A stretch of 64,000 nt of DNA from an uncultured Clostridia bacterium (GCA_948442695.1 CAOJSF010000005.1:4168-68167), one strand, 5' to 3'; positions 1,621 to 15,798 are shown, counted from the stretch's first letter. The notes: generated from the letters alone by a model not told the origin. Translations and numbers: made by a program.

Positions 1621-1626
1621 GAATTA

Positions 1627-1875: not shown

Positions 1876-1986
1876 ATGAATAAAGTTAAGAAATTGATTT
1901 TTAAGTGTGACTTAATTATTTTAGAAAATAAATTGTTGTTGAATGGAGTTAAAGAGTTTTTAAAAGGAGTAAAAGAACATGTATGA
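1876..1986 (+). CDS. hypothetical small protein (36 aa)
   Basis: ATG preceded by AGAGAGG; MNKVKKLIFKCDLIILENKLLLNGVKEFLKGVKEHV. First in a train of short overlapping ORFs. Confidence 0.35.
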   Translation: MNKVKKLIFKCDLIILENKLLLNGVKEFLKGVKEHV

Positions 1987-2125
1987 TTTAAAAAACTTAT
2001 TAGTTGAAAATGAGATTTTGAAACATAATGTAAAAGTTTTAATTGAAAGAAATTCAGAACTTTTATTGAAAATAAAGAATTTAGAAATACAAAATGAACA
2101 GCATTGGCTGAATAAATTGATTTAA
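1979..2125 (+). CDS. hypothetical small coiled-coil protein (48 aa)
   Basis: AAGGAG RBS 9 nt upstream; overlaps the previous ORF by 8 nt; MYDLKNLLVENEILKHNVKVLIERNSELLLKIKNLEIQNEQHWLNKLI. Confidence 0.4.
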   Translation: MYDLKNLLVENEILKHNVKVLIERNSELLLKIKNLEIQNEQHWLNKLI

Positions 2126-2136
2126 AAGGAGTATTT

Positions 2137-2247
2137 ATGAAAAATTTAACATTTAAGCAAGTAATAAAAATGTTTGATGAATTAATGGCTAAAGGCTATC
2201 AAGTCGAAGAAATAGTCAATATGCCTATAGAAATAGGTGAAAATTGA
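2137..2247 (+). CDS. hypothetical small protein (36 aa)
   Basis: AGGAG RBS 6 nt upstream; MKNLTFKQVIKMFDELMAKGYQVEEIVNMPIEIGEN. Confidence 0.4.
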   Translation: MKNLTFKQVIKMFDELMAKGYQVEEIVNMPIEIGEN

Positions 2248-2259
2248 TAGGTATAAAAA

Positions 2260-2352
2260 ATGATAGTTTTAAAAGTTTTTAAATACATATTTCAAATTGG
2301 TCTATGTGTTGGTGTTGTTTGTTTAATCGCATTCTTAACAACATTGATTTAA
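2260..2352 (+). CDS. hypothetical 30-aa single-TM peptide
   Basis: MIVLKVFKYIFQIGLCVGVVCLIAFLTTLI; the RBS is weak and hydrophobicity is the only support. Confidence 0.3.
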   Translation: MIVLKVFKYIFQIGLCVGVVCLIAFLTTLI

Positions 2353-2359
2353 AAAAAAA

Positions 2360-3637
2360 ATGTCGGAGGTAATTTTGAAGAAAGTTTTAAAATTTTATGA
2401 AAATACAAAAATTCGATGTATTGCAATGTTTTTAATTTTATTCGCTTTTTTAATTTTTAACGGCTTTTCAAATGTTCAACTTGCAAAAGCAGAAAGCATC
2501 GAATACTCAAGTGTTCTTGACGATTTATCTAAGGACGAAAATTTTAATCAGTCAAAATATATAGAGAAGATTAATGATTATTCATTGCAGTTGATTCAAA
2601 TTGCTGAAAGTGAAAGTAAAGAGTTGTTTATTTATGTTTATCAGCCTTCTGGCACAATTAGACCTTTAAAAGCAACTTCAATTAATATTTCTACTGCTAA
2701 ATGTGAAGAGTTAGATTTTAAAAACTATAAACTTGAACTTTTAAGTTATTCAAAAACTCTTTTTAAATATAAAGTCAACAATTTTCAAGTTTCTGATAAG
2801 GAAAATAGATATTATGAAATATCTTCCATTTTTAGAAAATGGGATGGAAATATAGATGACGTCTTAGATAAAACAACTGAGAATTCAATATCAGAAGTTA
2901 GTTTTGCTGTCGGCAAAGCATATCACATTAGTGGAAAAGATAATCAAGAAATTATCTGTGAAGATGTTGAAACAATTAAAATTACTGATAAATATGTTGG
3001 TTTTATTCGTTATTTGGAAGGCTTTTTTCTCTATAATGATTCATGCGACGCTCATTATGTTGCTTTTTCTACTGACAAACAAATTGACAAGTTGTTAGAG
3101 GCTGACATATTTTATGTTTCATGTTCAGTAGAAGAAAGGGAAAATCTGACTGGCAAACATCCTGAATATGGCAAAAATCAAGATAATTATAAACATTTAA
3201 CAAGTGATGACACAGTAGGAAATAAACCTATTTTAGGAAAGCCTCATACCTGGAAAAGAATTGAAACAGTTGAAGATTTTATTGCTGAAGAAAAATTGAC
3301 AAACGAAGCAAAGAACAATTTATCTGATATGAAATGGGTCTTGAGATTTGTAGAAACCGATTATAAATCCGCACCATCTGTTTCTGGCACTAAATATAAT
3401 TATTACACTAAAGTTTCAGATGTCTCAATTTTGCGACTTAAATTTGAGACTGACGGTGAAGTTTTTAATCTAGGTGTGGTCGACAACAAGCAAACTGGAA
3501 GTTTAACACCCGACAATCCACAAATAAGTATTTTTGATAAAATTATAAATCTTGTTATAAAAATTGTAATCGGAATTGTTAGTTTAATTTTAATAGTCGA
3601 ATTAATCAAACTTATAGTTTACATATTTAAAAGATAA
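2360..3637 (+). CDS. secreted protein with a C-terminal membrane anchor (pIII-like architecture only), function unknown
   Basis: N-terminal signal-like segment (..FLILFAFLIFNGFSNVQLAKA/ES) and a C-terminal TM helix (LVIKIVIGIVSLILIVELIKLIVYIF) followed by KR. A GGAGG at 2365-2369 favours the in-frame TTG at 2375 as the true start. Confidence 0.6.
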   Translation: MSEVILKKVLKFYENTKIRCIAMFLILFAFLIFNGFSNVQLAKAESIEYSSVLDDLSKDENFNQSKYIEKINDYSLQLIQIAESESKELFIYVYQPSGTIRPLKATSINISTAKCEELDFKNYKLELLSYSKTLFKYKVNNFQVSDKENRYYEISSIFRKWDGNIDDVLDKTTENSISEVSFAVGKAYHISGKDNQEIICEDVETIKITDKYVGFIRYLEGFFLYNDSCDAHYVAFSTDKQIDKLLEADIFYVSCSVEERENLTGKHPEYGKNQDNYKHLTSDDTVGNKPILGKPHTWKRIETVEDFIAEEKLTNEAKNNLSDMKWVLRFVETDYKSAPSVSGTKYNYYTKVSDVSILRLKFETDGEVFNLGVVDNKQTGSLTPDNPQISIFDKIINLVIKIVIGIVSLILIVELIKLIVYIFKR

Positions 3638-3649
3638 AAGGAGTATGAT

Positions 3650-4984
3650 ATGTCAAAAAAATTTTGGACAAGTCTAGTTGTAAGTATATTTGCTGTTGCC
3701 ATTTTAGGCGGTGGCATTTATACATTATGCAACTATGATGACATAAAAGATAAAATTCAAGGTGGCAATGGTTCACATAAACCTGTTAATCCAGATATAC
3801 CAACCGACCCTGAATTCCCATTAACTTTTGTTGTTAAATTTTTAGGTTATGAAAAAACAGAAGTTCAGACTATTGCTATCGGTGATTATGCAAAAGAACC
3901 TGCGATACCTCCTCAAAAAGAAGGCTATGTATTTAAGGGCTGGATGATTAGTGACACGATAATAAAAGTAAGTGATATAATAATCAATCAAAATATAACA
4001 TTTGTTCCATGTTTTATCAAAACCTTTAAAATAACTTATTCTGTTGGAGATGTTACAAAAACATTTACTCAAGAAGAAGGCTTTTTGAAATATGGTCTTG
4101 TTGAATATATTATCCCAAATGGTTTTGTTTTTGATTACTGGTTATGCAACGGACAGAAAGTTGAAAGTCTGCAAGATATAACAGTTGTACGAGATATTCG
4201 ATTAGAGGCTGTTTTGACACAAATTCATGAAGTATCATTTTATGACCGTGGAACTCTTTTTATCAAAGATGTCAGACATGGTGAACTTGTGGAAATAAAA
4301 GAACCTAATGCTCCTGGTTATAAATTTATAGGCTGGGCTAATAGTGATGATATTATTGTTGATTTGGTAAACTACCCTATTGTTCGTGATGAATTTTTAA
4401 CAGCAAAATTTGAAGAAGTTGAAATGGAGAAATTAGAATTTACTCTTACTGATGAGCAAATACAAACAATCAAACAAAATGGCTGGAATCCTGCGTTTGG
4501 TGGTGTCGCATTAGAAGTTATAGATTTTTATTATTGTGCAAAATTAAAAACCATATATTTTTATCTTCGAGGTGTTGATAGAGCAACTCGACCTGTTTAT
4601 AACGAATGTGGAGTTCAAGTTGAAAAAGATGAAGATATATCACCGGAGTATATTATTGAACAAATAAGTATCGAAAATAATCCACTTATTTATATGCATG
4701 GTTTTAAGTCAGCAAAAAAATTAAACAATGAATATTTTGAATCAAATAAAGAAAGTCAATATGAATTTGAAAATCGAAGATTTTCTTTAGAAAATATATA
4801 CATAGAACTTGCCTCGTCGTTTAAGGACGGAAAAAGAACTTATTTTTATTACATGCTTGCAATAAATGAAGATGGTTCAATTTTAAAAATTAATCAAAAA
4901 GATGACGAAAGTTATATTTATGACGATAAATCAATAACTGATTCTGATTTCTGTTCAATTCTTTTAGAAAAATTTAAAGTTTAA
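3650..4984 (+). CDS. membrane-anchored surface protein with Listeria-Bacteroides-type repeat domains
   Basis: N-terminal TM (LVVSIFAVAILGGGIYTL). Three repeat signatures: EGYVFKGW, NGFVFDYW and PGYKFIGW, each about 30-40 aa after a beta-strand start. Confidence 0.65.
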   Translation: MSKKFWTSLVVSIFAVAILGGGIYTLCNYDDIKDKIQGGNGSHKPVNPDIPTDPEFPLTFVVKFLGYEKTEVQTIAIGDYAKEPAIPPQKEGYVFKGWMISDTIIKVSDIIINQNITFVPCFIKTFKITYSVGDVTKTFTQEEGFLKYGLVEYIIPNGFVFDYWLCNGQKVESLQDITVVRDIRLEAVLTQIHEVSFYDRGTLFIKDVRHGELVEIKEPNAPGYKFIGWANSDDIIVDLVNYPIVRDEFLTAKFEEVEMEKLEFTLTDEQIQTIKQNGWNPAFGGVALEVIDFYYCAKLKTIYFYLRGVDRATRPVYNECGVQVEKDEDISPEYIIEQISIENNPLIYMHGFKSAKKLNNEYFESNKESQYEFENRRFSLENIYIELASSFKDGKRTYFYYMLAINEDGSILKINQKDDESYIYDDKSITDSDFCSILLEKFKV

Positions 4985-4995
4985 GGAGAAACAAT

Positions 4996-6927
4996 ATGAA
5001 AAAAATAACAAAAATATTAATCAGCGGTGCTATAGTGGTGCTGTTAAGCACTGGGCTGACTCTAGGTCATATCTATCGAAATGAAATTAAAGATTTCTTT
5101 ACTGGTGTTTTTGCGAAAGCCGAAACACCTTCTAAACCAAATGGTGAAGAAATTAAAGGCTTTAAATTTTCAGGCAATAAAATAACCGGTTATACTGGCA
5201 CCGAGGTCAATCTTCAATCTTTACCAAATTCATACTCAAAAACCGATGAATTGATTGAGTCATTTGATTCTACTTATGCAGATTTGTCAGAAAATGAAGA
5301 GATGATTGAAAAATTGATGAACCATAGTTTTAACTGCCAACCTCAAGGCAAAGATAAATTTTACTGCTCTGATTTATATTCTTGGGAAGAACAAATATCA
5401 GTTCTTTTTGAAGATGAAGATATTGAAAATATTCCTCTTAAATTTGAAATTTTAAAGACCACATACTATGAAGGTGACGATTTTAAAGTGACTGCAATAG
5501 GCGACCGTGCCTTTGAAGGAAATACGATAATTACTGATATTGTCATTCCTGACTACATTACTGAGATAGGCAGTGGTGCTTTTGATAGTTGTTCAAGTCT
5601 GATTAATGTAACTTTGAATAAAAACATCAACTCATTAGAAATGTCAACATTTTGTGGTTGTATAAATTTAGAGAATATTAATATAGAAAATATCACTCGT
5701 TTTGACAATTATGTTTTTAGTGGTTGCAAGAGTTTGAAAAATGTAACCTTAAATGAAAATCTAAAAGAAATTTCATCAAACTTATTTCAAAATACCGGTC
5801 TTACATCAATTAAAATTCCTTCTTCAGTTGAACGTATAAAAATGATGGCTTTTTCGGGTTGCTCAAATCTAACAGAGATAACAATTGAAGAAGGTGTTAA
5901 AGAACTAGATTCATCATTTATTGAAGGGACTGCTGTCACAAAACTTGAATTACCTTCAAGCATAGTGTTCTCTGACTATATCAGTTTTTCAAACGATAAC
6001 CTGGAAGTTGTTAAATTCAATATGGACTTGTCGATGACTCAATTATCAAATTTTCTTTACTCGAATAATTGTCAAGTTTTTGTGAAAAGCGAAATTGAAA
6101 AAGAATGTTTTACTGATGAAAATGTAAATAATTTTGCTCAGTATAACGGAAGGATATTTTCTCTTGAAGAATACACTGGTGAAAAGGTGCAAAGGACAGG
6201 CTTGATTACTGATTATAGGTTTAACACGCCGAATTCAAGTGTTGAAGTTTCTAGATATTTAGGAACTTCAACAATATTGACTCTTCCAGACATCGTCCGC
6301 TATGAATATGAAACACTTTTAGAACAGACTCTTTCTTCAAAAGAAGAGTTTGATGCCTTTTATGAAGCAAATAAAGACCTTCAATGCTATGAAATTTCAT
6401 ATATGTCTATCGATAGAAATGAAGGTCATGCATTTGAAAATATAAATGAATTTAAAAGTTTTATTGATGAAAAATATGCTACGGCTTCAAATCTTTTCCC
6501 TATTGATGTTCAAGCACAAAATATGTATGTTTATGAATGTGATTATGGTGTGCCTGTTCAAAGCATTGATTTACACTGCTTTGAAAATAATCAAACAATA
6601 GAAGAAGTGGTTATAAGTGATACATGTAAACATATCGGCGAAATGGCTTTTAAAGATTGTGTTAATTTGAAAAAAGTAGTGCTTGGCGAAAATTGTAAGT
6701 CGATTGCTCAAAATTCCTTTCAAGGCACCAGTGAAGAATTAGTGATAGTAATTCAGGCAGATGAAGTTCTTAAAGTTTTTTGGTCAAACTATATTCAATA
6801 TATATTAGGAAAAGTATATGTTAAAGACGAATTGCTTGACTTATATCAAACAAGTGAAGGTTGGTCGCATATTGCAAGTCAGATACATCGCATGAGCGAG
6901 TTGGAGGCTTATCTTTCAGTTCAGTAA
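4996..6927 (+). CDS. BspA-type leucine-rich-repeat surface protein
   Basis: N-terminal TM/signal (ILISGAIVVLLSTGLTL). Serial ~23-25-aa LRR units of the LRR_5 type (IPDYITEIGSGAFDSCSSLINVTL .. IGEMAFKDCVNLKKVVL). Confidence 0.7.
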   Translation: MKKITKILISGAIVVLLSTGLTLGHIYRNEIKDFFTGVFAKAETPSKPNGEEIKGFKFSGNKITGYTGTEVNLQSLPNSYSKTDELIESFDSTYADLSENEEMIEKLMNHSFNCQPQGKDKFYCSDLYSWEEQISVLFEDEDIENIPLKFEILKTTYYEGDDFKVTAIGDRAFEGNTIITDIVIPDYITEIGSGAFDSCSSLINVTLNKNINSLEMSTFCGCINLENINIENITRFDNYVFSGCKSLKNVTLNENLKEISSNLFQNTGLTSIKIPSSVERIKMMAFSGCSNLTEITIEEGVKELDSSFIEGTAVTKLELPSSIVFSDYISFSNDNLEVVKFNMDLSMTQLSNFLYSNNCQVFVKSEIEKECFTDENVNNFAQYNGRIFSLEEYTGEKVQRTGLITDYRFNTPNSSVEVSRYLGTSTILTLPDIVRYEYETLLEQTLSSKEEFDAFYEANKDLQCYEISYMSIDRNEGHAFENINEFKSFIDEKYATASNLFPIDVQAQNMYVYECDYGVPVQSIDLHCFENNQTIEEVVISDTCKHIGEMAFKDCVNLKKVVLGENCKSIAQNSFQGTSEELVIVIQADEVLKVFWSNYIQYILGKVYVKDELLDLYQTSEGWSHIASQIHRMSELEAYLSVQ

Positions 6928-7049
6928 ATAAGATACTTGAATAAAATTTTAAATCTATGGTGGTGAAATGTTCATGGTGTTTAACACGATAAACACAGCA
7001 CAAGGCAAAATTAATAAATATTTAGGCTTTTTCATTTTATTAACCCTCT

Positions 7050-7215
7050 CAAAGTGCTGGTAAGGTATGCCTAGCCTTATCTTCTCAAGGTTGAAGTCCT
7101 TGAGCCATAGTATGAGAGTTACATATTTAATTAAAAGTTCACTGTCACTTAATTAAATAGTGTTTGAGTTCAATCCTCAAAACTCTCACCAGTTGAGTAG
7201 TCGCGAATACTCAAA
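7050..7215 (+). other. hairpin-dense noncoding block IG1 (candidate ssDNA origin / packaging / regulatory structure)
   Basis: Hairpins at 7059-7081 and 7084-7104 (CTCAAGG/CCTTGAG). An outer stem GAGAGTT (7114-7120)/AACTCTC (7181-7187) encloses two further hairpins (7125-7158, 7163-7181). Locally GC-richer than its surroundings. Confidence 0.5.
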
Positions 7216-7270
7216 AAAAGTTTATCAGTATCTTAAAAAAACTGAAATTTAAAAATAAAGGAGTTTAAGT

Positions 7271-7450
7271 TTGGCTTATTATAAAAAAACAAAGCCTAAA
7301 AAGAAATCTAATAAATATACTTCAATAGAAAAATTAGCTTATCAAATTGGTCAAATAGAAAAAGGTTTGAAGAACCCAAAAAGTAAAGTTTATGAATCTT
7401 ATCATAAAGGTCATAATGTTAAGTCTAGTCAAAAGAAACCTTTATTCTAA
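7271..7450 (+). CDS. 59-aa lysine-rich basic protein (candidate DNA-binding / virion-associated)
   Basis: TTG start 7 nt after AAGGAG; LAYYKKTKPKKKSNKYTSIEKLAYQIGQIEKGLKNPKSKVYESYHKGHNVKSSQKKPLF. Not in the ORF track because it is under 60 aa. Confidence 0.45.
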   Translation: MAYYKKTKPKKKSNKYTSIEKLAYQIGQIEKGLKNPKSKVYESYHKGHNVKSSQKKPLF

Positions 7451-7619
7451 AAAAATTTCGCCGGCGCAACAAAATTGCGTTTGGTGTTTTAACTGAACAA
7501 TGAAAACTGAAAATTAAAGCTGTAAGTCAGGGTAATGCTCCCCTGCACAATGTCAATAGCTGAAGTTGACAATTATCATTTAGCCAAAATATTAAACAAA
7601 AAAAAGGAGAAAAAAAATT

Positions 7620-7925
7620 ATGGCAAACAATATTAAAAGAATGATTAAAGAAGAAGGTGTTGTTCTTGAAAAAATTTTCAAAGAGGCAACAAATGAGTTT
7701 AAAGGTTCAGATGGTCGAGTTGTTCCTGCACAACCTGATAGATATATTTTGAAATGCGTAAGTGGTGAAGACTTTGATAAGAACTTAGGTTTTAAACAAT
7801 CAACTGTCCTTGAATATAAAACTGATAGAGTTACTTATGATAAAGTTTCTTGCTATACACCTGTAGTGGTAAGATATGAAGTGTCAAATTATGGTGCAAG
7901 AGCAATGTCTATTGAACTAAAGTAA
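7620..7925 (+). CDS. 101-aa soluble protein; candidate gene-V-type ssDNA-binding protein by position and size only
   Basis: AAGGAG RBS embedded in A-tracts and no TM. It lies immediately upstream of the small single-TM protein and its terminator. Confidence 0.5.
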   Translation: MANNIKRMIKEEGVVLEKIFKEATNEFKGSDGRVVPAQPDRYILKCVSGEDFDKNLGFKQSTVLEYKTDRVTYDKVSCYTPVVVRYEVSNYGARAMSIELK

Positions 7926-7944
7926 TTTAAAAGGAGATTAAGCA

Positions 7945-8151
7945 TTGCGTTTTTTTAAAAATATTATGTTAGTTATTTTAGGAATGGCTCTTGCTGTAGG
8001 AATTTTCTGCTTGATTGTTGGCATTTCATGCAAAATAAATGATTTGAGTTTTAGTCAACAAATCATTGAATGGTTTTCTTCATTTTCACCTGCAATAAAA
8101 GAGCCTGTTGATGAACTTGTGAACAATATTGCATTATTAAAAATAATTTAA
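7945..8151 (+). CDS. 68-aa single-TM protein; candidate filamentous-phage coat protein
   Basis: TTG start after AAGGAG; one TM helix (IMLVILGMALAVGIFCLIVGI). Followed at once by a strong terminator, as after gVIII in Ff phages. It lacks the basic C-terminus of classical major coat proteins. Confidence 0.45.
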   Translation: MRFFKNIMLVILGMALAVGIFCLIVGISCKINDLSFSQQIIEWFSSFSPAIKEPVDELVNNIALLKII

Positions 8152-8156
8152 TTTAA

Positions 8157-8198
8157 AATAAGGGTTGGGTATATTACCCTTTTACCCTTATTTTTTTT
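8157..8198 (+). terminator. rho-independent terminator after the small TM protein gene
   Basis: AATAAGGGT ... ACCCTTATT stem followed by T8. Confidence 0.65.
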
Positions 8199-8249
8199 CT
8201 AAAAAATTTAGCAATGTTTAAATATAATTTTTTTTAGGAGTTTCTTAAT

Positions 8250-9071
8250 TTGATAACAATAATCTTTGCACCACCTCGAACTGGAAAAACTTGCTTTATG
8301 ACACACTGCCTAGTGCAAACTATGTTTAATAGACAAAGAAACCTGGCAATGCAAAATGAAATATTACAAAAACAACAAAATGGCTTTACTAACATTAAGA
8401 CAATACCTCTTCATTGCGTTTCTGCGAATTATGATATAATTGGCAAACAATTTAGGTATAGTCCTAGATTTAGCCGTAGAATTAACCCTTATAGATTAGG
8501 CTTTTCAAATAGGTTTGTGAAGACACATTTTAACTTGCCTTATGAGTGCATTGGAATTACAGAGGCTCAAAAATATTTAAATAGCCGTTTATCAATGTAT
8601 TTCCCTGACTGGCAAAGTCGTTGGTATGAACAGCACGGACATGACAACTTAGACATATTTTTAGATACACAAAGACCTATGCTTATAGATGTTAATATTA
8701 GAGAACTTGCACAATTTATTGAGATTGTAAAACTTACTATTCACAAAGACAAAAGAGGTAAAATAATAGGCTTAACTTGGAAAATCAGAAATATAGAAAA
8801 CAGCAGTTTTTTTGACCGATATATGCAAAGTGGCAAGAAAGATAAAGAGTGTTATACCGAAGAAGAAGTCACGGCAGATTACAATGTATTTGAGTGCTAT
8901 GATAGTCAAAGTTGTAAGCCCAAATTTTATGACGGACACATGGGCGAAGACTTTGATTATAAAGAGGCAGAGTCAACCGAAGAAACAATGCAAGGTTATA
9001 TAAAATACTTAAAAGAAAATGATGATGAACTGCCTGATAATTTTCATCAAAAAAGGAAAGTTGCACAATGA
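8250..9071 (+). CDS. Zot / pI-like filamentous-phage assembly ATPase
   Basis: N-terminal Walker A at residues 7-13 (APPRTGKT), a Walker B-like GITEAQ, then EQHGHDNLDIFLDTQRPMLIDVNIRELAQFIEIV. These match the Zot-family pattern (DEaq .. HRH.G.Dii.iTQ .. id..iR.l). No C-terminal TM. Confidence 0.75.
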   Translation: MITIIFAPPRTGKTCFMTHCLVQTMFNRQRNLAMQNEILQKQQNGFTNIKTIPLHCVSANYDIIGKQFRYSPRFSRRINPYRLGFSNRFVKTHFNLPYECIGITEAQKYLNSRLSMYFPDWQSRWYEQHGHDNLDIFLDTQRPMLIDVNIRELAQFIEIVKLTIHKDKRGKIIGLTWKIRNIENSSFFDRYMQSGKKDKECYTEEEVTADYNVFECYDSQSCKPKFYDGHMGEDFDYKEAESTEETMQGYIKYLKENDDELPDNFHQKRKVAQ

Positions 9072-9445
9072 AATTTAAAGAGAATGAGTTAATAAACGAA
9101 ACATTAGACAAACATTTTGAAACTTGGTCACACACATTGAATACTGCTGATTTTGTGCCTGCCAAATTTTTGAATAAGATTGACAAACAAATTTACAAAA
9201 AGCTTACAAAAAAATTGAAAGAAGTTGAAATTTATAATCTTTTATATTTGCAAGAAGAAGGTTATAAACTTGGTCTATTTCAGAAATTAAAAATATATTT
9301 CTCAGGATTAAAGCCTTTATATTTGAATGAAAAACAAGAAATAAATTTGTATGAAGAGATTGCTTATTTAAACGAAGAATTAGAAAAATGCAAAAAGTCA
9401 AAACGCAAAAAGAAAACAAATAATTCTTCTGATGAAAACAATTAA
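9068..9445 (+). CDS. hypothetical 125-aa coiled-coil protein with a Lys-rich tail
   Basis: The start overlaps the stop of the ATPase gene (ATGA), indicating translational coupling. Confidence 0.5.
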   Translation: MKFKENELINETLDKHFETWSHTLNTADFVPAKFLNKIDKQIYKKLTKKLKEVEIYNLLYLQEEGYKLGLFQKLKIYFSGLKPLYLNEKQEINLYEEIAYLNEELEKCKKSKRKKKTNNSSDENN

Positions 9446-9513
9446 ATTTGATTATTCCCCTTCAAGATTTATTATTCTTTCTTGATTTTGGGCAGTAGTC
9501 GTAAGTGTGTGGT

Positions 9514-9786
9514 AATGTGTATTACTCAAGAGGAGTTATGCACATTTCCAGCAAACTGTGTGAATGTGGATTACTTGCATGCAAGTTATCCATATTTACA
9601 TAGTTTGTCGTAAGCACACCGATTTTGTTGGTAATGTGGAAAAGTCAAAGACTTCTCCATATTTCCACAAAAAATATAACCTTATGTTAAAACTAGGGTT
9701 TTAAGTAAGACAATTTCACGCAAAGGCGATAGGCTCTGCCTCGCCTTGCGTGAGAGTGTTACTTCTACTCGACAATAGTAACACTC
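9514..9786 (+). other. hairpin array IG3 (candidate replication origin / Rep recognition region)
   Basis: Three related imperfect palindromes share the arms AATGTG..CA(C/T)ATT: 9514-9546, 9563-9596 (34 nt, centred on GCATGC) and 9633-9663. Further hairpins at 9681-9709, 9717-9752 and 9754-9786. Confidence 0.55.
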
Positions 9787-9818
9787 AACGGAATGAAAAT
9801 TTTTAAGGAGATAGTTTT

Positions 9819-10208
9819 ATGAATAATAAACAAACTTTATATAAGTTAAATAGAAAAGCAAATAAAACAATATCTAAATTAGGTCGTAATTATTCTGCTT
9901 TAAATGAATATAACGAAATTGTTAATGATTTAGGTCTTGAACATTTAGCAGTTGATAGAAAATCAAAATTTGGTACTTCAAAATGGAATTTGAGAGATAT
10001 GGTTTCAGAAATTGATTATCAATATTCTACTTATAAAGAAAATGGGCATTTTAATAATGATTGCTTACACTCCTCTGACAGAAATGAAAGATTACAAGCA
10101 ATGCGAGAATGTAAGAGATTAAAAAGATTTATAAGTAAATATTCTGCTGATACTTCAAAATTAAAATGTTATGAAAATCATTGCAGTAGATTTGATAATG
10201 CAAAATAA
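9819..10208 (+). CDS. hypothetical 129-aa protein (Cys/His-containing C-terminal half)
   Basis: AAGGAG RBS; no recognisable domain. Confidence 0.5.
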   Translation: MNNKQTLYKLNRKANKTISKLGRNYSALNEYNEIVNDLGLEHLAVDRKSKFGTSKWNLRDMVSEIDYQYSTYKENGHFNNDCLHSSDRNERLQAMRECKRLKRFISKYSADTSKLKCYENHCSRFDNAK

Positions 10209-10224
10209 GAGAGGTAATTTTTAA

Positions 10225-10923
10225 ATGCAATTTCATTTATTATTTGAACAATCTGGAACATTTAAAAATGTTTTAAAAAATCAAGGTTTTAATGCTTATG
10301 ATTATGATATTTTAAATGATTATTCTCAAACAGATATTCAAATTGATTTATTCCAGGAGATTGAAAAAGAATTTGAGAATTTGATTGATAATAAAAAGAA
10401 CATTACAATCTTTACAAATATGACTTCTGAAAATGATTTTATAATTGCTTTCTTTCCTTGCACACATTTTTGTGATGCTAATCAGTTGCAATATAGATTA
10501 TGGAACGCCGGAAAGAAACTTGATTTTAATAATAAATCAGTTGTTAGATTATTAAAGCGAAATAACGAACGAGCCAGGTATTTTGATTTATATTTAAAAT
10601 TTTGTTTTATTTGTAAAACAAAAAAGATCAGAACAATAATTGAAAATCCGGCTAGTTCCGGAAATAAAAATTATTTAGTTATGTTCTCCCCTATTGATTT
10701 AAGTTATTATGAAAAGGATAGGTCTTTATTTGGAGATAGTTTTAAAAAAGCAACTAATTATTTTTCTATAAATTTTGATATGAAAGAAAATTTTATGATG
10801 TTTGATAGAAATTATAATGTAAAAAATATTGAAAAAGATAGACATTGTACGAAAACTAGGAGTGAGATTTCAACACTATATGCTGAAAATTTTTATAAGA
10901 GATTTTTAGAAAATAGAATTTAG
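10225..10923 (+). CDS. hypothetical 232-aa protein with weak DNA C5-cytosine-methyltransferase-like motifs
   Basis: LFEQSGTF (motif I-like, FxGxG position), AFFPCTHF (motif IV Pro-Cys) and IIENPASS (motif VI ENV-like). Too short for a canonical target-recognition domain. Confidence 0.4.
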   Translation: MQFHLLFEQSGTFKNVLKNQGFNAYDYDILNDYSQTDIQIDLFQEIEKEFENLIDNKKNITIFTNMTSENDFIIAFFPCTHFCDANQLQYRLWNAGKKLDFNNKSVVRLLKRNNERARYFDLYLKFCFICKTKKIRTIIENPASSGNKNYLVMFSPIDLSYYEKDRSLFGDSFKKATNYFSINFDMKENFMMFDRNYNVKNIEKDRHCTKTRSEISTLYAENFYKRFLENRI

Positions 10924-10949
10924 TTTATAAAATTAAAATAGGAGTTTTT

Positions 10950-11960
10950 ATGGAAAATTTAGAAGAACGAAAAACTGCCTATTACTTGTTTCAAAAAGAT
11001 AGAGTATATAGAGATAAAACATTAACCTCAATATACTATAAATCAAACAAACAAGTAGAAAAGAAAAGCCGACCTGTTGATATTGACGGAATAAGATATA
11101 AGTTGAATTTAGAAACTGGTGAGATTGATACATATAAGAAAAGTGAAGTTTTAAATTCAATGAATAGTTCACTTCGGAGAACTAAAATTTTAATGAATAT
11201 GCTCCTTGAAATGAATAACTTTGATTGGTTCTGCACTCTCACCTTTGACCCTCATAAGATAGACAGAACAAACGACGAAGTAGTTTTTAATGCATACAAA
11301 AAATACATAAACAACATTAAAAAGCAGTTCCCCTCTCTTGGTTATATGTGTTTCCCTGAAAGACACGAAGATAATTGTATACATTTTCATTTACTTATAA
11401 ATGGAATATCGCCAAAGCAATTAGGACTTGTAAATTCTGGAAAAGTTTGTTGTTCTTGGGCTTATTACAAAAACAAAATTTCAAGTAAAGAATATTTTGA
11501 AAAAACAAAGCACGAACACGAATTGACTGATACTGACGGATTGCCTGTCTATAATGTAACCACATTCCCCTATGGCTTTACAACGGTCACTAGAATTGCA
11601 AGCAGAGAAAGATGTAACAGTTATGTTAAAAAGTATGTAGAAAAGGCTCTCGGTTCAACAGAAATATTCAAGAAAAGGTTTTATTATTCTTCCAACTTAA
11701 ATGTTCCTGCGATTGTATCTCGGCTTATAGGTGCAGATTTTGACACACCGAAAGATATAACTAAAACAGAGTTATATTATAACAACCCTCTTATTCAAAA
11801 TGCTGATTATCTTAATTACAATAAAGATTACAATGTTTTGCAATACTGGGTTGAAAATGAAATAAAAGAAAATATAAATAAAGGTTTAATTCCTGTCAAT
11901 ATAGATTTAGAAGAATTACCTTTTGAGGAGGTTTATGAGCAACAAAAAATTAAAATTTAA
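10950..11960 (+). CDS. HUH-superfamily rolling-circle replication initiator (two-tyrosine type)
   Basis: Motif 1 FCTLTFDP, motif 2 IHFHLLINGI (HUH) and motif 3 NSYVKKYVEKA (Y-x3-Y), in canonical order and spacing. Confidence 0.8.
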   Translation: MENLEERKTAYYLFQKDRVYRDKTLTSIYYKSNKQVEKKSRPVDIDGIRYKLNLETGEIDTYKKSEVLNSMNSSLRRTKILMNMLLEMNNFDWFCTLTFDPHKIDRTNDEVVFNAYKKYINNIKKQFPSLGYMCFPERHEDNCIHFHLLINGISPKQLGLVNSGKVCCSWAYYKNKISSKEYFEKTKHEHELTDTDGLPVYNVTTFPYGFTTVTRIASRERCNSYVKKYVEKALGSTEIFKKRFYYSSNLNVPAIVSRLIGADFDTPKDITKTELYYNNPLIQNADYLNYNKDYNVLQYWVENEIKENINKGLIPVNIDLEELPFEEVYEQQKIKI

Positions 11961-12543
11961 AAGAAGTTTGCCCATAGGACAAACACTTGAAACAAATGAC
12001 TTATATTTACCTTATAAGAAAAATAAAAAGCCTGCAAGTAAACGCAGACCTGTTATTATAGCAGGTAAACAAATAAGCCCTAAAGGCATTGAGGAATATT
12101 CAGTTATTCCTGGCTCAACGCAAGATACACCTAATACAACAGAATATAAAAAATATGGTATTGAGTATTATAGGCATAATTTGGAAGTTAGAGATAATGA
12201 AGGTAATCCGATATCTCAAAATGAAAAATTTAGAATTTCAAATCAAAGTTCTAAATTGCCAAATAAAGAAGTAGACAAGATAAGAAATCATATATTAAAT
12301 CATACTAAATTTTCAAGTGAAAATAGAGCCAAAGTAAGTGAATTTAATAATAGATATTCCTTAACGGAAGAAACAAAAAAGTTTTTGTCTGAAGAGAAAG
12401 TGCGATTAAAAAAAGTGTCAAGTCAAAATATAAATAAAATGCTTCAATATTGGGTAAATCAACCTAAATCAAAATATAAAAATGCTTTATGTAAAATTTA
12501 TAAAAATGAATTAAATAGTAGAAATAAAAAAAGTAGAGGTTAA
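11935..12543 (+). CDS. basic 202-aa protein; N-terminal region faintly PemK/MazF-like
   Basis: GAGGAGG RBS directly upstream of the ATG at 11935, which lies inside the last 26 nt of the Rep gene. SKRRPVIIAG ..(17 aa).. YSVIPGSTQ resembles the MazF RPxuVuS..uuuxPuTS pattern. Confidence 0.45.
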   Translation: MSNKKLKFKRSLPIGQTLETNDLYLPYKKNKKPASKRRPVIIAGKQISPKGIEEYSVIPGSTQDTPNTTEYKKYGIEYYRHNLEVRDNEGNPISQNEKFRISNQSSKLPNKEVDKIRNHILNHTKFSSENRAKVSEFNNRYSLTEETKKFLSEEKVRLKKVSSQNINKMLQYWVNQPKSKYKNALCKIYKNELNSRNKKSRG

Positions 12544-12558
12544 CCACTCTACTCAATA

Positions 12559-12755
12559 CTGGCATTTGCCAGTCGGTGCATATAGCGAATAATTCCTATA
12601 TGCCTGTCACCAAATTAAATTTGATATATTTATTATATGTTAAATATAATTAAAAGTCAACACTTTTAAATAAAAATTTATGAATAAAAAAAAGAAATTC
12701 AGTACCCGAGCTGTGTTACCACAAGACGCCAACTTAATGACTAATCTGAATTTCT
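12559..12755 (+). other. hairpin block IG4
   Basis: CTGGCA-tt-TGCCAG (12559-12572); GGTGCATATAG..CTATATGC..CACC (12575-12611). A 10-bp stem AGAAATTCAG (12693-12702)/CTGAATTTCT (12746-12755) encloses a GC-rich 43-nt loop. Confidence 0.45.
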
Positions 12756-12803
12756 ATTATTATACTCAAAAAAATTATAATGTCAATATAAAAAGAGGAA
12801 ATT

Positions 12804-13445
12804 ATGGAAAGTTTTAATATCAAAGATATTCCTGTTATGGAAAATGAAGAATTAAATAATATGCTTGAAAAATTACAAGATGTTTTTAAATCTTCTCAAA
12901 CTGATTTTGCAAAAACTTGTTATTATGTCCATCATATTTGGTCATATTGTAAAAATACATATTGGAAAGTTAAAGATAAAAATGATGTTCTTTATAATTC
13001 ATATATGTTACTTGAAAAGTTTGGTTTTGACCGAACAGCCGTTTGTCGGTTAAAAAATTGCTATGAAAGATTTTGCAATGATAGAGATATAAACATTCAA
13101 CTAAAAGACATATTCAAAGACTTTTCCCCTTCTAAACTTTACGAACTTTTACCATTAAAGGAAGAATTAATATATGAATGTGTCAATAAAAATATTATAT
13201 CTGCAAAGATGTCTAAAAAAGAAATAAGACAGATAGTAAAAGATTTAGTAAATGGTGTTCCAGTAGATAAAATATCTAATGCAGTTGTAGAAATTGAAGA
13301 AATAAATGAAAATGAAATTCCTATGGCATATGACCCTAAACAAAAATATGATTTTGAATATTTTAAATCAAAATCAAAAAATCAACTTGTCAATATGATA
13401 TGGGAACTGCAAAAAGAATATCAGAAGAGCAAAAATAAAAAATAA
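12804..13445 (+). CDS. hypothetical 213-aa protein
   Basis: GAGGA RBS; no recognisable motif. Last plus-strand gene before the convergent terminator. Confidence 0.5.
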   Translation: MESFNIKDIPVMENEELNNMLEKLQDVFKSSQTDFAKTCYYVHHIWSYCKNTYWKVKDKNDVLYNSYMLLEKFGFDRTAVCRLKNCYERFCNDRDINIQLKDIFKDFSPSKLYELLPLKEELIYECVNKNIISAKMSKKEIRQIVKDLVNGVPVDKISNAVVEIEEINENEIPMAYDPKQKYDFEYFKSKSKNQLVNMIWELQKEYQKSKNKK

Positions 13446-13456
13446 AACAAAAACAA

Positions 13457-13487
13457 AAAAAACAGGTTGGAAAAATACCTGTTTTTT
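13457..13487. terminator. bidirectional terminator between convergent genes
   Basis: AAAACAGGT-tggaaaaat-ACCTGTTTT with flanking A and T runs. Confidence 0.6.
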
Positions 13488-14409
13488 ATAAACTTTCATT
13501 TATTTCTATTTTTAATTGTTTATACTTGCTTTTTATTAAACTTATAAGCCTCTGTGTATCGTTCTTTACTTCTGAATAATTGATTTCAATTAATGGCAAT
13601 TTATACTTTTCATATAAATTTATTTTTTCTTTTTTATTTTTGTTATATTTTTCGTTTCCTACCATTCCCCATAATTCAACATAAATTCCTTTTCCGAGCG
13701 AAACAGGAATATACCAGTCACAAACAACAGTTCTTTCTATTATTTCATCTACTTTGATATTATAAGCATGAACAATACCTAAATTATATAAAATGTCATC
13801 AACTGTAATTTCCAGTTCGCTTTCTACAAAATGACCATCTTGAGATTTTTTAATCTTTGCTTTTTCTTTATCTTGCTCTTCTTTTATAATATCAATTCTT
13901 GATTTTTCTTTAATATTTGACATCAGTTTATCATTTTTATTTTTTAAATTCGTATCAATACTGCTTAAATCCTTAGTTAATCTTTCTTCAACAGTTCTGT
14001 CATTATGTAATTGTTTAAGCAAATTGTTTATTGCCACCATTGTCAGTTTTTGATAGTAAATTTTATCTTCATCATAAACTCTCATCGCATAATCTTTGGC
14101 ATTGTAATAATAATCTCTCAATTTACTAGGTTTTTGATTTTTATCAAGTTCTTCTTTTCTATCCTCAACATCATAATAACAATCTGTACAGAGACTATAT
14201 CCTTTTGTAGTTTCCTCTCCACAAATAATACAATTTGTTTTAGTTGCGCTTATAATCTTATCAATGCTGGGAAATATATCTAAATCTTCTTCCCATATTC
14301 CTGTTTCAGGATTTTTTACAACCAAACCTTTTGCTTTATCTTCCAAATGTTTTTTACAAAGTGGATATATTCCTGAAGGCAATCCACAAATTTGACAAAC
14401 TTTCCCCAT
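13486..14409 (-). CDS. zinc-ribbon protein with a C-terminal PD-(D/E)xK-like nuclease-type motif pattern
   Basis: Two CxxC..CxxH/C pairs (CQICG..CKKH; CIICG..CTDCY). The C-terminus has VCDWYIP..GIYVELWG..Y.K.KK..PLIEI, which resembles restriction-endonuclease-fold proteins. Start set at the ATG with a GGAGG RBS (14409). Confidence 0.45.
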   Translation of the reverse strand: MGKVCQICGLPSGIYPLCKKHLEDKAKGLVVKNPETGIWEEDLDIFPSIDKIISATKTNCIICGEETTKGYSLCTDCYYDVEDRKEELDKNQKPSKLRDYYYNAKDYAMRVYDEDKIYYQKLTMVAINNLLKQLHNDRTVEERLTKDLSSIDTNLKNKNDKLMSNIKEKSRIDIIKEEQDKEKAKIKKSQDGHFVESELEITVDDILYNLGIVHAYNIKVDEIIERTVVCDWYIPVSLGKGIYVELWGMVGNEKYNKNKKEKINLYEKYKLPLIEINYSEVKNDTQRLISLIKSKYKQLKIEINESL

Positions 14410-14549
14410 ATTTCCTCCATGTAAATAAATATACCACAAATTTCAATATAAATCTCCCTCTTCGACAAAATTAGACAAAATTCGTTGTAGATATCAATTC
14501 AATATATTTTGTATAATTTTTAAGAATAACATTAAAGGAATAAATACAA

Positions 14550-15587
14550 ATGAAACACAAAGGAAATAAAAACTTAACATATACTCAAAGATTACAAATA
14601 GAAGCGCTTTATAATACAAACCATAAAGTTAAAGAAATTGCTGTATTCTTAGATTTACATATATCAACAATCTATTATGAACTTAAAAAAGGTCTTTATG
14701 AACATAAAAATAAACAAAATACATTTTGGTATGGCATTAAGTATAAAAAACAAATAAGATATTCAGCCCAAATCGCACAAAATCGTTATAATCAAATTTG
14801 TTTAAATAAAGGTAGAAATTTAAAAATAAATAAAGATTTTGCATTTGTTCAATATATGGAAAAACGAGTTAATAAAGATAAAATTTCGCCTTGTGCTGTT
14901 TTAGGCGAAATAAAATACAAAAACTTGCCTTTTACAAAAATAAGCAAAACAACACTTTATCGATACATAGATATGGGCATTTTTGCAAATATAAAACTAA
15001 CAAAACGCAAAAAAGTATATAAGAAAGTTTGTATAAAAAGAGCACCAAAAGGCACAAGCATTGAGAAAAGAGCACCAGAGATAAGACAACGCAAAACTTT
15101 TGGACATTGGGAAATGGATTGCGTTTGCGGTAACAATAAAGCAACTTTGCTCGTTTTAAGTGAAAGACTTACACGCAAAGAGATAATATTTCAAATGCAA
15201 GACCAGAAAGCAAATAGTGTTATATACTGCTTGAATATATTAGAGCGAAGATTCGGAACTATGTTTAAAAAAGTTTTTAAAACAATCACGGTTGATAATG
15301 GAAGTGAGTTCGCAGACTTTAAAGGACTTGAAAAGTCTTGTTTTGGCAGAAATGCAAAACGAACACTCGTATATTATTGTCACCCTTATTGCAGTTATGA
15401 ACGAGGCACTAATGAACGACTTAATCGGGAAATCCGTCGACTTATACCTAAAGGCACTTCTATAAATAAATATACAAAAGAAGATATACAAAATGTTGAA
15501 GACTGGGTAAATAATTATCCACGAGAAATATTAGGATATGCAACATCACAAGAATTGTTCAATAAACAAATTCAAGCATTGGCTTGA
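14550..15587 (+). CDS. IS30-family DDE transposase
   Basis: N-terminal HTH-like region, then HWEMDCV (D), ITVDNGSEF (D) and CSYERGTNERLNREIRRLIPKGT (E) .. NNYPREILGYATSQELF. This is the diagnostic IS30 pattern. Confidence 0.9.
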   Translation: MKHKGNKNLTYTQRLQIEALYNTNHKVKEIAVFLDLHISTIYYELKKGLYEHKNKQNTFWYGIKYKKQIRYSAQIAQNRYNQICLNKGRNLKINKDFAFVQYMEKRVNKDKISPCAVLGEIKYKNLPFTKISKTTLYRYIDMGIFANIKLTKRKKVYKKVCIKRAPKGTSIEKRAPEIRQRKTFGHWEMDCVCGNNKATLLVLSERLTRKEIIFQMQDQKANSVIYCLNILERRFGTMFKKVFKTITVDNGSEFADFKGLEKSCFGRNAKRTLVYYCHPYCSYERGTNERLNREIRRLIPKGTSINKYTKEDIQNVEDWVNNYPREILGYATSQELFNKQIQALA

Positions 15588-15668
15588 TAATAATTGTATA
15601 CATCACATTTTAGGTATGAGAACTCACACTCTTTTTTGCGTTTTAAAAAAGAAAAATAGTCTTGATTT

Positions 15669-15707
15669 AAGCCTTTAATCCCCTTCATGAAGAGGATTAA
15701 AGGCTTT
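15669..15707 (+). terminator. long hairpin downstream of the transposase gene
   Basis: AAGCCTTTAATCC-c-CTTCATGAAG-a-GGATTAAAGGCTT, followed by TTTCTC (weak T-run). Confidence 0.45.
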
Positions 15708-15781
15708 TCTCTCTAAAATATACTTAATTTCTTTAAATATTTTAATTTTTTTGAAAAATTCGATAAATTTTCTTGACTTTA

Positions 15782-15798
15782 CATTATTTTAATTAATT
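15782..15798 (+). repeat. right copy of the 17-bp direct repeat CATTATTTTAATTAATT
   Basis: Identical to 1439-1455. Confidence 0.5.

Follow-up and report, generated by a model that had tools for sequence, protein, structure and literature searches.

What kind of mobile element brings together a filamentous-phage-type assembly ATPase, a rolling-circle replication initiator and a transposase, and which of its enzymes takes it into the genome of its host? This question is raised by a locus in a 64,000-nucleotide stretch of DNA from an uncultured Clostridia bacterium (GCA_948442695.1, CAOJSF010000005.1:4168-68167), here called the window, from whose first letter all positions are counted. A first-pass annotation, made from the sequence alone, had recognised a filamentous-phage prophage module at 6930-13445. 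That interpretation gains support from the matches of two of its proteins to Zot and to rolling-circle Rep families, from phage matches confined to Inoviridae, and from the presence of own ends and of a target duplication. With a probability that we estimate at roughly three in four, positions 1456-15783 would constitute the intact integrated genome of an inovirus-like (Tubulavirales) single-stranded DNA (ssDNA) phage of a gut Christensenellales-type Clostridia host, which is at the same time an IS30-type transposon.

Delimitation of the element

The mobile unit comprises positions 1456-15783 of the window, that is, 14,328 bp, and it is flanked as a whole by a direct repeat of 15 nt, or 17 nt if the preceding CA is counted, at 1441-1455 and 15784-15798. 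The features that define its two ends are the following.

1441-1455, no strand: left copy of the target-site duplication, TTATTTTAATTAATT, identical to 15784-15798 and abutting the left terminal repeat
1456-1482, plus strand: left terminal inverted repeat, TGTAAAGTTTTATACTGATATCGAAAA, directly inside the left duplication copy
15757-15783, minus strand: right terminal inverted repeat (...TTCGATAAATTTTCTTGACTTTACA; reverse complement TGTAAAGTCAAGAAAATTTATCGAATT)
15784-15798, no strand: right copy of the target-site duplication, TTATTTTAATTAATT

The terminal repeats are imperfect, with 16 of the 27 left-end positions matching the reverse complement of the right end, and consist of two blocks, TGTAAAGT and TATCGAA. 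In the 64-kb window the composite motif TGTAAAGT-N10-TATCGAA is matched perfectly at just two places, which are the two ends of the element, in opposite orientation. The right boundary is fixed by a second metagenomic copy (locus L009, 98% identical over the right half), which diverges exactly after ...GACTTTACA and whose right flank differs from that of the window; on the left, similarity to related element-free genomes ends at 1436-1448. An initial blind search, in which the stretch 3′ of the transposase was compared with the left part of every locus, returned no long inverted repeats, and the ends were located only after the direct repeat and the break point of L009 had fixed the boundary. 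Host synteny is recognisable on both sides, with a pyrophosphatase and tRNA-Arg at the left and genes for AAA_33/Ham1, zinc-ribbon (DZR) and Band_7 proteins resuming beyond the right end, and the G+C content is 28.3% inside the element versus 32.0% in the remaining window. For the AAA_33/Ham1 protein of the right flank, exact look-ups with two alternative start codons yielded no record.

The span first assigned to the module, 6930-13445, is therefore too narrow, as the ends and the duplication give 1456-15783, and the alternative span of 1.4-15.8 kb that had also been considered is the right extent. The three upstream genes for secreted proteins (2360-6927) and the downstream gene for an IS30-family transposase (14550-15587) belong to the element. 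The block forms a self-contained unit of 14.3 kb, complete with ends and a target duplication of its own, and is not part of a plasmid or integrative and conjugative element with other morphogenesis genes. All open reading frames (ORFs) of the element are intact and have the same length as in relatives; because of this, and because a near-identical copy has a different flank, the element is probably active, as judged by sequence comparison.

Transposase and target duplications

The enzyme that the ends point to is encoded close to the right end.

14550-15587, plus strand: IS30-family DDE transposase (NF033563, 203.6 bits against a cut-off of 80; phrog_4646, 2.4e-108)

Although this score confirms the IS30-family gene that the first-pass annotation had listed downstream of the module, its description as a mere neighbour does not hold: the inverted repeats and the duplication bracket the whole phage, and the transposase is therefore the phage's own integrase. 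A search for local inverted repeats around the transposase gene alone gave no credible pair, and none lies just upstream that would define an insertion sequence of 1.1-1.3 kb.

A presence matrix of the element's genes was built over 88 loci. In seven other species-level genomes (L016, L018, L019, L020, L025, L034 and L079) a homologue of the element's 213-amino-acid (aa) protein is followed on the same strand by an IS30-family gene whose product is 59-75% identical. The left end, TGTAAAGTTTTAT(T/C)(C/A)CTTATAGCAAA, is kept in L016, L019, L020 and L025, and the DNA to its left is different at every locus. At L016, L019 and L025 the 14-17 nt left of the left end reappear directly after the right end, which closes in ...GACTTTTCA in the first two and in ...GACAATTTG in the third.

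L016: duplication TTTATTTAAACTTTTT, 16 nt, unit of 12.3 kb
L019: duplication ATAAAAACCTTACTAAC, 17 nt, unit of 10.9 kb
L025: duplication AATTTTACACATTT, 14 nt, unit of 12.7 kb

Since the flanking repeats differ in sequence between loci, they represent target-site duplications rather than a common att core. Moreover, the inner block of the inverted repeat reads TATCGAA in the window and TATAGCAA in the relatives, and it is matched at both ends within each lineage; such a paired change is the behaviour that transposase-binding sites should display. Duplications of 14-17 bp around units of 10.9-14.3 kb lie outside the typical IS30 range, and the long duplications together with the large units indicate that this is not an ordinary insertion sequence.

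Assembly ATPase and its partner

Two proteins bear on the phage assignment, the first of which is accompanied by a small partner.

8250-9071, plus strand: Zot/pI-type morphogenesis ATPase, short (273 aa), with no transmembrane (TM) segment, assigned by profile and fold matches
9068-9445, plus strand: 125-aa Zot partner, whose start overlaps the Zot stop (ATGA) and which adjoins Zot in nearly all of 79 related loci

The motifs by which a Zot/pI ATPase had been proposed at 8250-9071 were all located, namely PPRTGKT at residues 8-14 (GKT at 12-14), GITEAQ at 102-107 and HGHDNLDIFLDTQ at 129-141, and both profile and fold comparisons gave significant matches. The protein matches phrog_197, 'Zot-like toxin', at 7e-9, and when compared with PDB by sequence its only real match is 2r2a, the N-terminal domain of Neisseria Zot (5.9e-4). 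The same structure ranks at the top of a Foldseek search with the AlphaFold model (pLDDT, the predicted local distance difference test, 74; core >85), with an E-value of 2.7e-8 and a TM-score of 0.62 on the target, four orders of magnitude ahead of the next match, RecA (7e-4). In a tblastn search of 50,697 phage records, the Zot and Rep proteins match only circular faecal genomes deposited as Inoviridae, and the Zot of bajarodino virus 12 is 30.5% identical to that of the window (E 6e-22). A scan of IMG/VR with the Zot protein returned no match.

This ATPase has numerous relatives. A HMMER scan of 1.84 billion representatives identified 284 clusters related to the short Zot, the full-length members among the 150 listed being 240-310 aa long, and the family has more than 832 members at 90% clustering. 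Across the 79 related loci the identity of Zot is 59-90%, mostly at least 67%, and most neighbouring genes are unalignable. It is a distinct short form of Zot, always trailed by the small overlapping partner gene at 9068-9445. Only Zot and the first ~55 residues of the 125-aa partner are conserved across nearly all 79 loci (L010-L088).

Replication initiator and putative origin

The second protein is a replication initiator, and the most structured noncoding DNA of the element lies between the ATPase operon and the gene that follows it.

10950-11960, plus strand: HUH rolling-circle replication initiator of the phiX-A/G2P type with the two-tyrosine motif YVKKY, assigned by PF23343 and the located motifs
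9446-9818, plus strand: main intergenic region, 373 nt, the most structured block (ssDNA fold z -9.1), between the Zot operon and the next gene
9552-9607: 56-nt palindrome within the main intergenic region
9716-9786: putative Rep origin, with hairpin 1 at 9716-9753 and hairpin 2 with its stem at 9754-9763/9777-9786 and its loop, TCTACTCGACAAT, at 9764-9776
6928-7270, plus strand: structured noncoding block, ssDNA fold z -5.7, ~85% conserved in L003
12544-12803, plus strand: structured noncoding block, ssDNA fold z -4.8, of which 12575-12676 is 96% identical in L003

The Rep protein (336 aa) passes the curated Pfam threshold of PF23343, REP_ORF2-G2P, with 43 bits against a cut-off of 27.8 (5.6e-11), and matches phrog_3419, 'rolling circle DNA replication initiation', at 1.9e-12. 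The motifs on which a HUH Rep had been proposed at this position are found at residues 94-99 (FCTLTF), 145-150 (HFHLLI) and 225-229 (YVKKY). Identity to the Reps of faecal inoviruses with circular genomes is 26-35%, and the tblastn search matched those of 28 bajarodino and Dulem viruses. A PDB sequence search with Rep and with the 101-aa protein described below gave nothing useful.

The conserved double hairpin at 9716-9786 is likely, on the pattern of its conservation, to be the Rep origin. The motif occurs once per element in 19 relatives, where it lies directly upstream of Rep. Hairpin 1 carries compensatory changes (AAAGGCG/CGCCTT in the window, AACGGCA/TGCCGT in L022 and TGGGGCC/GCCCCG in L019), with double changes at 6 of the 15 predicted pairs, whereas in hairpin 2 the stem is nearly invariant (GAGTGTTACT/AGTAACACTC) and the 13-nt loop, TCTACT(C/T)GACAAT, is invariant. 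This loop resembles the nick site of the phiX174 A protein (CAACTTG/ATA), as the YVKKY motif of Rep resembles YVAKY of phiX; because of this double resemblance it is proposed, as a lead, that Rep might nick within ACTCG/ACAA of the loop.

Four hairpin-dense noncoding blocks had been pointed out in the first-pass annotation. The claim stands for 6928-7270, 9446-9818 and 12544-12803 and fails for 7451-7619, where the ssDNA fold is no better than that of shuffled sequences (z -0.8). A search of the noncoding blocks against Rfam gave no match.

Relatives and hosts

The closest relative, L003 (= L010), comes from a mouse-gut 'Eubacteriales' metagenome-assembled genome (MAG), and its Zot and Rep are 90% and 95% identical to those of the window. 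It is colinear with window positions 1591-13442, including the three genes for large secreted proteins (2360-6927), and its unit (805-15264, 14.4 kb) lies between perfect 45-nt direct repeats that represent the 3′ part of a tRNA-Met gene. Bounded in this way by att repeats, it is a clean prophage, more than 80-95% identical to the element of the window over most genes, and it shows that the shared gene set integrates as a single unit in which the large secreted proteins are included. The left end of L003 encodes a tyrosine integrase, a DUF2726 protein and an HTH_3 repressor, a module absent from the window copy, which instead has on its right a minus-strand gene for a 317-aa protein and the IS30-family transposase. 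Among the relatives at large the integration modules vary between the IS30 type, a tyrosine recombinase with a tRNA att site, and a serine recombinase with a LexA-like repressor (L004 and L006); on the evidence of these loci, integration modules are freely swapped.

In a collection holding one genome per species, the Zot family occupies 79 loci in ~75 species, all of them gut Clostridia/Bacillota MAGs. The carriers belong to Christensenellales, 'Candidatus Caccovivens', 'Candidatus Onthoplasma' and unnamed Clostridia, and come from human, mouse, ruminant, chicken and rabbit. The host of the window is close to that of L003, as the methionyl-tRNA synthetase and the pyrophosphatase of both fall in the same 90% clusters.

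The gene order of L019 runs from a homologue of the 101-aa protein through two single-TM proteins (65 and 52 aa), three N-terminally anchored proteins (441, 170 and 660 aa, the last with Flg_new repeats), Zot and its partner, and the putative origin and Rep, to a homologue of the 213-aa protein and the transposase. As far as gene content can tell, this order is canonical for an inovirus; in the lineage of the window, the genes for large secreted proteins are placed upstream instead. On the metagenomic contig L094 (1-7144) the right half, which carries Rep, is closed by a different type of transposase (rve + HTH_Tnp_1), and the left-end genes (66 aa, 122 aa, and homologues of the 101-aa and 68-aa proteins) come directly after it; this arrangement may represent either a circular form or two elements in tandem.

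Candidate virion proteins, cargo and surroundings

The remaining genes of the left half include the candidates for virion and assembly functions. TM segments were called with a simple Kyte-Doolittle window and not with TMHMM.

1627-1839, minus strand: 70-aa coiled-coil protein, with a 77% identical homologue at the same place in L003
1979-2352, plus strand: small ORFs of 48, 36 and 30 aa, 83-100% conserved in L003
2260-2352, plus strand: 30-aa protein with one hydrophobic helix (hydrophobicity scan), candidate virion or assembly protein
2360-3637, plus strand: 425-aa secreted protein, pIII-like candidate adsorption protein, with TM segments at residues 15-42 and 388-425
3650-4984, plus strand: 444-aa N-terminally anchored or secreted protein with Listeria-Bacteroides (Flg_new) repeats (PF09479, 1.6e-10), candidate receptor-binding protein
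4996-6927, plus strand: 643-aa secreted BspA-type leucine-rich-repeat protein (PF13306, 1.1e-52), candidate receptor-binding protein, with a 75% identical homologue in L003
7271-7450, plus strand: 59-aa lysine-rich protein with no TM segment, possibly DNA-binding, with 42-46% identical homologues in five relatives
7620-7925, plus strand: 101-aa beta-barrel protein, probably ssDNA-binding (gV analogue), from an AlphaFold2 model and Foldseek
7945-8151, plus strand: 68-aa single-TM protein with a hydrophobic segment at residues 1-34, candidate virion or assembly protein, with homologues in ~30 related loci
8155-8199, plus strand: intrinsic terminator, a hairpin of -16.6 kcal/mol followed by U8 (z -3.5)

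The 425-aa protein combines an N-terminal signal-like segment with a C-terminal membrane anchor, as pIII does. It is conserved in L003 (78%) and in other relatives, and over 79 aa it is 49% identical to a protein encoded just upstream of Zot in the circular bajarodino virus 12. Proteins with Flg_new repeats are encoded directly upstream of Zot in many relatives, and a role of the Flg_new and BspA-type proteins as receptor binders is plausible. The model of the 101-aa protein (pLDDT 90) is a five-strand barrel with one short helix, and its homologue precedes the small TM proteins in relatives, like gV; the modelled fold makes an ssDNA-binding gV analogue probable. The small proteins noted in the first-pass annotation are borne out in their composition, the 59-aa protein having 16 lysine and arginine residues versus 3 aspartate and glutamate residues, and the 68-aa protein a single N-terminal hydrophobic segment and a strong terminator behind it. 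A weak second match to the 68-aa protein, at 62458-62643, runs antisense within a large ORF and was discarded as spurious.

These genes provide what Roux et al. 2019 look for in an inovirus, namely a pI-like ATPase, short (30-90 aa) single-TM proteins (here of 68 and 30 aa) and remaining genes that are uncharacterised or inovirus-like. The absence of capsid, terminase, portal and tail genes, on which the initial interpretation had also been built, is reproduced by the Pfam, PHROGs and NCBIfam scans, in which no such family matched any ORF of the block.

The right half contains the following further genes, some of which we regard as cargo.

9819-10923, plus strand: cargo, a 129-aa protein and a 232-aa DNA-methyltransferase-like protein (phrog_757, methyltransferase-like, 4.6e-16)
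11923-12543, plus strand: 206-aa basic protein (46 lysine and arginine residues), whose N-terminal part is conserved at the left end of relatives
12804-13445, plus strand: 213-aa protein, constant partner of this Rep type, found after Rep in 20 of the 20 loci sharing this Rep
13486-14439, minus strand: 317-aa CxxC zinc-ribbon and PD-(D/E)xK nuclease-like protein, candidate defence cargo (PADLOC PDC-S69, 1.8e-22; HEAT_CxxC_PD-DEXK, 6e-4)

The cargo block of 1.1 kb (9811-10930) sits between the putative origin hairpins and Rep and is absent from L003; in L009 the gene for the 129-aa protein is present and that for the methyltransferase is absent. The gene for the 317-aa protein lies between those for the 213-aa protein and the transposase, and is found in L008 and L009 and not in other relatives. 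The N-terminal part of the 206-aa protein (11923-12543; L019 4130-4537) bears the motif RPV(I/V)(I/V)...V(I/V)P(G/L)S and looks like a PemK/MazF barrel, its homologue in L019 having a weak PemK-like match in Pfam (0.032).

Several observations concern the surroundings of the element. In the orthologous loci L102-L105 the element is absent and synteny is kept, but other variable genes occupy the spot, so that they offer no clean empty site; beside the same tRNA-Arg there is a 490-aa protein in L102 (3948-5420), and NT5C with a nucleoside hydrolase in L105 (4037-5508). Gene turnover appears to have a hotspot at the site adjacent to tRNA-Arg. At 1146-1161 and 1295-1310 lie the two copies of a direct repeat of 16 nt, TGGTGCGTCGCAAGGG, which corresponds to the 3′ end of the gene for tRNA-Arg(acg) at 1295-1371 on the minus strand, and the 133 nt between its copies contain a T-arm-like GGGTTCGAATCCC, with no Rfam match there; this pair looks like the scar of another, lost tRNA-targeting element. 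Far outside the element, the minus strand of the window encodes a single ORF of 3,560 aa (27968-38650).

Proposed life cycle and alternative explanations

The following life cycle may be postulated. The transposase would copy or cut the element out as a double-stranded circle in which the ends are abutted across a spacer of ~15 bp, and the same enzyme would insert the circle into AT-rich targets with a stagger of 14-17 bp. This double-stranded circle would serve both as the replicative form of the phage and as the transposition intermediate, as described by the ICTV, the international committee for virus taxonomy, for Vespertiliovirus. The HUH Rep would nick the invariant loop (TCTACTCG/ACAAT) of the hairpin at 9754-9786 to generate rolling-circle single strands, which the 101-aa protein, with its predicted oligonucleotide/oligosaccharide-binding (OB) fold, would coat. 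At the membrane, the short Zot-type ATPase and its constant 125-aa partner would power extrusion of a filament built from the small single-helix proteins (68 and 30 aa), possibly with help from the lysine-rich 59-aa protein, and the adsorption tip might consist of the 425-aa protein, with its pIII-like C-terminal anchor, together with the Flg_new and BspA-type leucine-rich-repeat proteins. The methyltransferase and the PD-(D/E)xK nuclease-like gene would travel as cargo.

A number of observations weigh against the reading of the element as an intact filamentous phage that is also a transposon. The match of the ATPase to Pfam Zot (PF05707) stays just under the cut-off (E 1.2e-3; 18.8 bits, cut-off 20.3) and covers only the C-terminal half of the model, and the 273 residues contain no hydrophobic segment, unlike canonical pI; of the pI homologue first proposed, the ATPase is upheld and the full canonical pI is not, the protein being a short form without a membrane segment. 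No protein matched a coat family in Pfam, PHROGs or a permissive search, even at an E-value of 10. The C-terminal half of the 68-aa protein is acidic, without the basic C-terminus of a gVIII-type coat, so that it can be regarded as no more than a candidate for the major coat, its suggested likeness to gVIII lying in the terminator behind a small TM protein. The best Foldseek matches of the 101-aa model are ssDNA-binding OB folds (LEF-3, PriB and SsbA/B), at weak values (E 0.03-0.5, TM-score 0.4-0.5). The element has no recognisable repressor, and at 14.3 kb it is twice the size of Ff and canonical inoviruses. One relative, L020, has both conserved ends (at 3429 and ~15090) and no flanking direct repeat, and a search of JGI metagenomes for the reconstructed site gave no match, so that a clean empty site was not recovered. 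No virion, ssDNA or circle of this particular element was found; a terminal-overlap test revealed no circular form among 105 loci, and the end-to-end junction (right end, 0-30 nt, left end) had no match in IMG/VR or in JGI metagenomes.

Some of these points would be accommodated if the element were a non-viral integrative element or a phage satellite, that is, a rolling-circle replicon riding on an IS30-type transposon without a filament of its own, whose ATPase would handle DNA in another way or exploit a helper phage. A short ATPase with no TM segment and a score below the Pfam Zot threshold, as well as the lack of a known coat family, fit such an element, and the authors of a 2026 preprint took a Zot-bearing, particle-packaged element as a possible satellite. 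We nevertheless consider this explanation unlikely, given the specific fold match to the Zot domain and the inovirus-like gene order of the relatives (OB-fold protein, small TM proteins, large secreted proteins, ATPase and Rep). The C-terminally anchored pIII-like protein also argues against it. Satellites, moreover, usually have no receptor-binding proteins, of which three candidates are encoded here, and circular relatives come from faecal viromes, the Dulem set after 0.2-µm filtration.

That the locus might be a decayed filamentous prophage with an unrelated IS30 insertion sequence alongside is suggested by the absence from the window copy of the integrase and repressor module of L003, and by the remark in Roux et al. 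2019 that domesticated transposases are inseparable from selfish ones by protein sequence alone. This alternative, to which we give very little credence, is largely refuted by the arrangement of the ends: there is no inverted repeat just 5′ of the transposase gene, the only two perfect end motifs in 64 kb bracket 14.3 kb, and the 15-bp duplication flanks the whole unit. The same architecture recurs with other duplications in other species and in circular virus genomes, and all ORFs are intact. Still more improbable is that a classical site-specific prophage integrated with tRNA-Arg (1295-1371) as its attB and that its integrase was lost afterwards. The tRNA gene does lie 85 nt from the left end, and L003 does use a tRNA-Met att site, but it is on the 5′ side of the tRNA, and not at the 3′ end, that the element abuts, the repeat at its flanks does not consist of tRNA sequence, and such repeats vary between loci, unlike att cores; tRNA-Arg as attB was accordingly rejected.

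Returning to the phage-transposon, its parts can be assembled into a broader proposal, which is tentative and which we hold with slightly more doubt than confidence. The window would then represent a family-level lineage of gut-Clostridia filamentous phages with two replicative lifestyles, one based on a phiX-type Rep and its origin, the other on a domesticated IS30-type transposase that uses the circular replicative form as its transposon circle (~15-bp spacer, 14-17-bp stagger). Extrusion would depend on a new soluble pI/Zot without a membrane segment and on a non-pVIII coat, the lineage would extend over ~75 species-level Christensenellales-like genomes, and it may include an element of 15 kb detected in mouse-gut particles.

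Significance

The general kind of element is already known, from the inovirus prophages with transposases of Roux et al. 2019, the transposing plectroviruses of the ICTV and circular relatives of the same gene order in GenBank. What the window adds is an exact delimitation, with ends and duplications showing that the transposase moves the whole phage. It also adds the co-occurrence of Rep and its likely origin with a transposase, a duplication of 14-17 bp that is unusually long for an IS30-type enzyme, and a short Zot that has no membrane segment. Of the inoviruses of Gram-positive gut anaerobes, little more than sequences is known. The earlier statement that such elements are almost uncharacterised in gut-type bacteria is right for their biology and wrong for their sequences, as related faecal Clostridia-associated inoviruses are present in GenBank and in the literature. 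The short Zot is highly conserved, with an identity of at least 59% across the 79 related loci and of at least 67% in most of them, and offers a practical metagenome marker for these phages. In addition, the adhesin-like tip proteins and the cargo (the methyltransferase and the nuclease-like defence candidate) are entry points to host range and to the conflict between phage and host in Christensenellales, gut bacteria that are associated with health and difficult to culture.

Comparison with known systems

The element shares with the IS30 family a DDE transposase of the NF033563 type and terminal inverted repeats of ~26 bp. IS30 transposition proceeds through a form with abutted ends, and ordinary IS30 elements measure 1.0-1.3 kb and generate duplications of 2-3 bp. 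In contrast, the element of the window holds 14.3 kb of phage genes between its ends, and duplications in its group are 14-17 bp long. A member of the same family, IS1630 of Mycoplasma fermentans, produces unusually long and variable target duplications.

With Ff (M13/fd/f1) and the canonical Inoviridae it has in common a pI/Zot-type ATPase, a HUH Rep with a putative hairpin origin, and a small, probably ssDNA-binding protein encoded upstream of small single-TM proteins. The likeness extends to the large C-terminally anchored candidate adsorption protein, the terminator after a small TM protein and the structured intergenic region. It differs from them in its ATPase, which has neither the membrane segment nor the periplasmic part of canonical pI, and in the lack of a pVIII-family coat and of a secretin, the latter not being expected without an outer membrane. 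Where inovirus integration is understood, it involves XerCD, tyrosine or serine recombinases, or IS110-type enzymes. Roux et al. 2019 (PMC6813254) described many inovirus prophages across bacteria, and their list of integration genes includes transposases.

Vespertiliovirus, the Spiroplasma SpV1 group of the Plectroviridae, comprises filamentous or rod-shaped ssDNA phages with a transposase, which in SpV1 is IS30-like according to the first-pass annotation. Vespertilioviruses have a transposase in place of Rep, whereas the window element has both Rep and a conserved putative origin, and their genomes span 4.5-8.3 kb, compared with the 14.3 kb of this element. They infect Mollicutes, which have no cell wall and in which UGA encodes tryptophan; in the window UGA is a stop codon (that of the Zot gene), and the ORFs are intact under translation table 11. 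With Rep present, UGA as stop and 79 of the 79 related loci in Clostridia/Bacillota MAGs, the element lacks the traits of a Vespertiliovirus. For these viruses the ICTV profile describes a life cycle by transposition in which the packaged genome is the circular intermediate (PMC8295915).

The nearest phage genomes are the bajarodino viruses 13 and 74 (PQ006184 and PQ006121) and 12 (PQ006185), and the Dulem viruses (e.g., PP511394), which are circular, come from rodent and lemur faeces and were deposited as Inoviridae. The Dulem genomes are terminally redundant circles from faecal supernatant that was passed through 0.2-µm filters, after rolling-circle amplification (PMC11281440); a search for a paper on the bajarodino set found none. 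These viruses share with the window a short Zot (236-300 aa) and a PF23343-type Rep with 26-35% identity. Bajarodino viruses 13 and 74 also share its gene order, from Zot, Rep, (ORF) and an IS30-type transposase (37-40% identity) through small and large ORFs back to Zot. They differ in that their proteins are only ~30% identical to those of the window, their genomes are smaller (4.7-10.2 kb), and they are circular assemblies for which no integrated form, host, ends or duplication has been described. About 200 nt 3′ of the transposase, bajarodino viruses 13 and 74 carry an inverted pair, ...AAATTTATT(G/C)TTGCAA and TTGTAAATTTATATTT..., separated by 14 nt, which is a candidate for two element ends in abutment, the length of the spacer being close to that of the 14-17-bp duplications.

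A further counterpart is an element of ~15 kb in the Pumilibacteraceae genome MGBC157735 that is enriched in mouse-gut virus-like-particle reads (bioRxiv 10.64898/2026.07.08.737213), to which its authors assigned no mobilisation mechanism and which they did not call an inovirus. By description, it resembles the element of the window in size, in an IS30 gene at one edge, in an 'inovirus Gp2' Rep, in direct repeats of 15 bp and in a Christensenellales-related Clostridia host, and it may be an element of the same kind. A circle with abutted ends, and with a spacer as long as the target duplication, may explain such particle-packaged 'unknown' elements of the gut virome.

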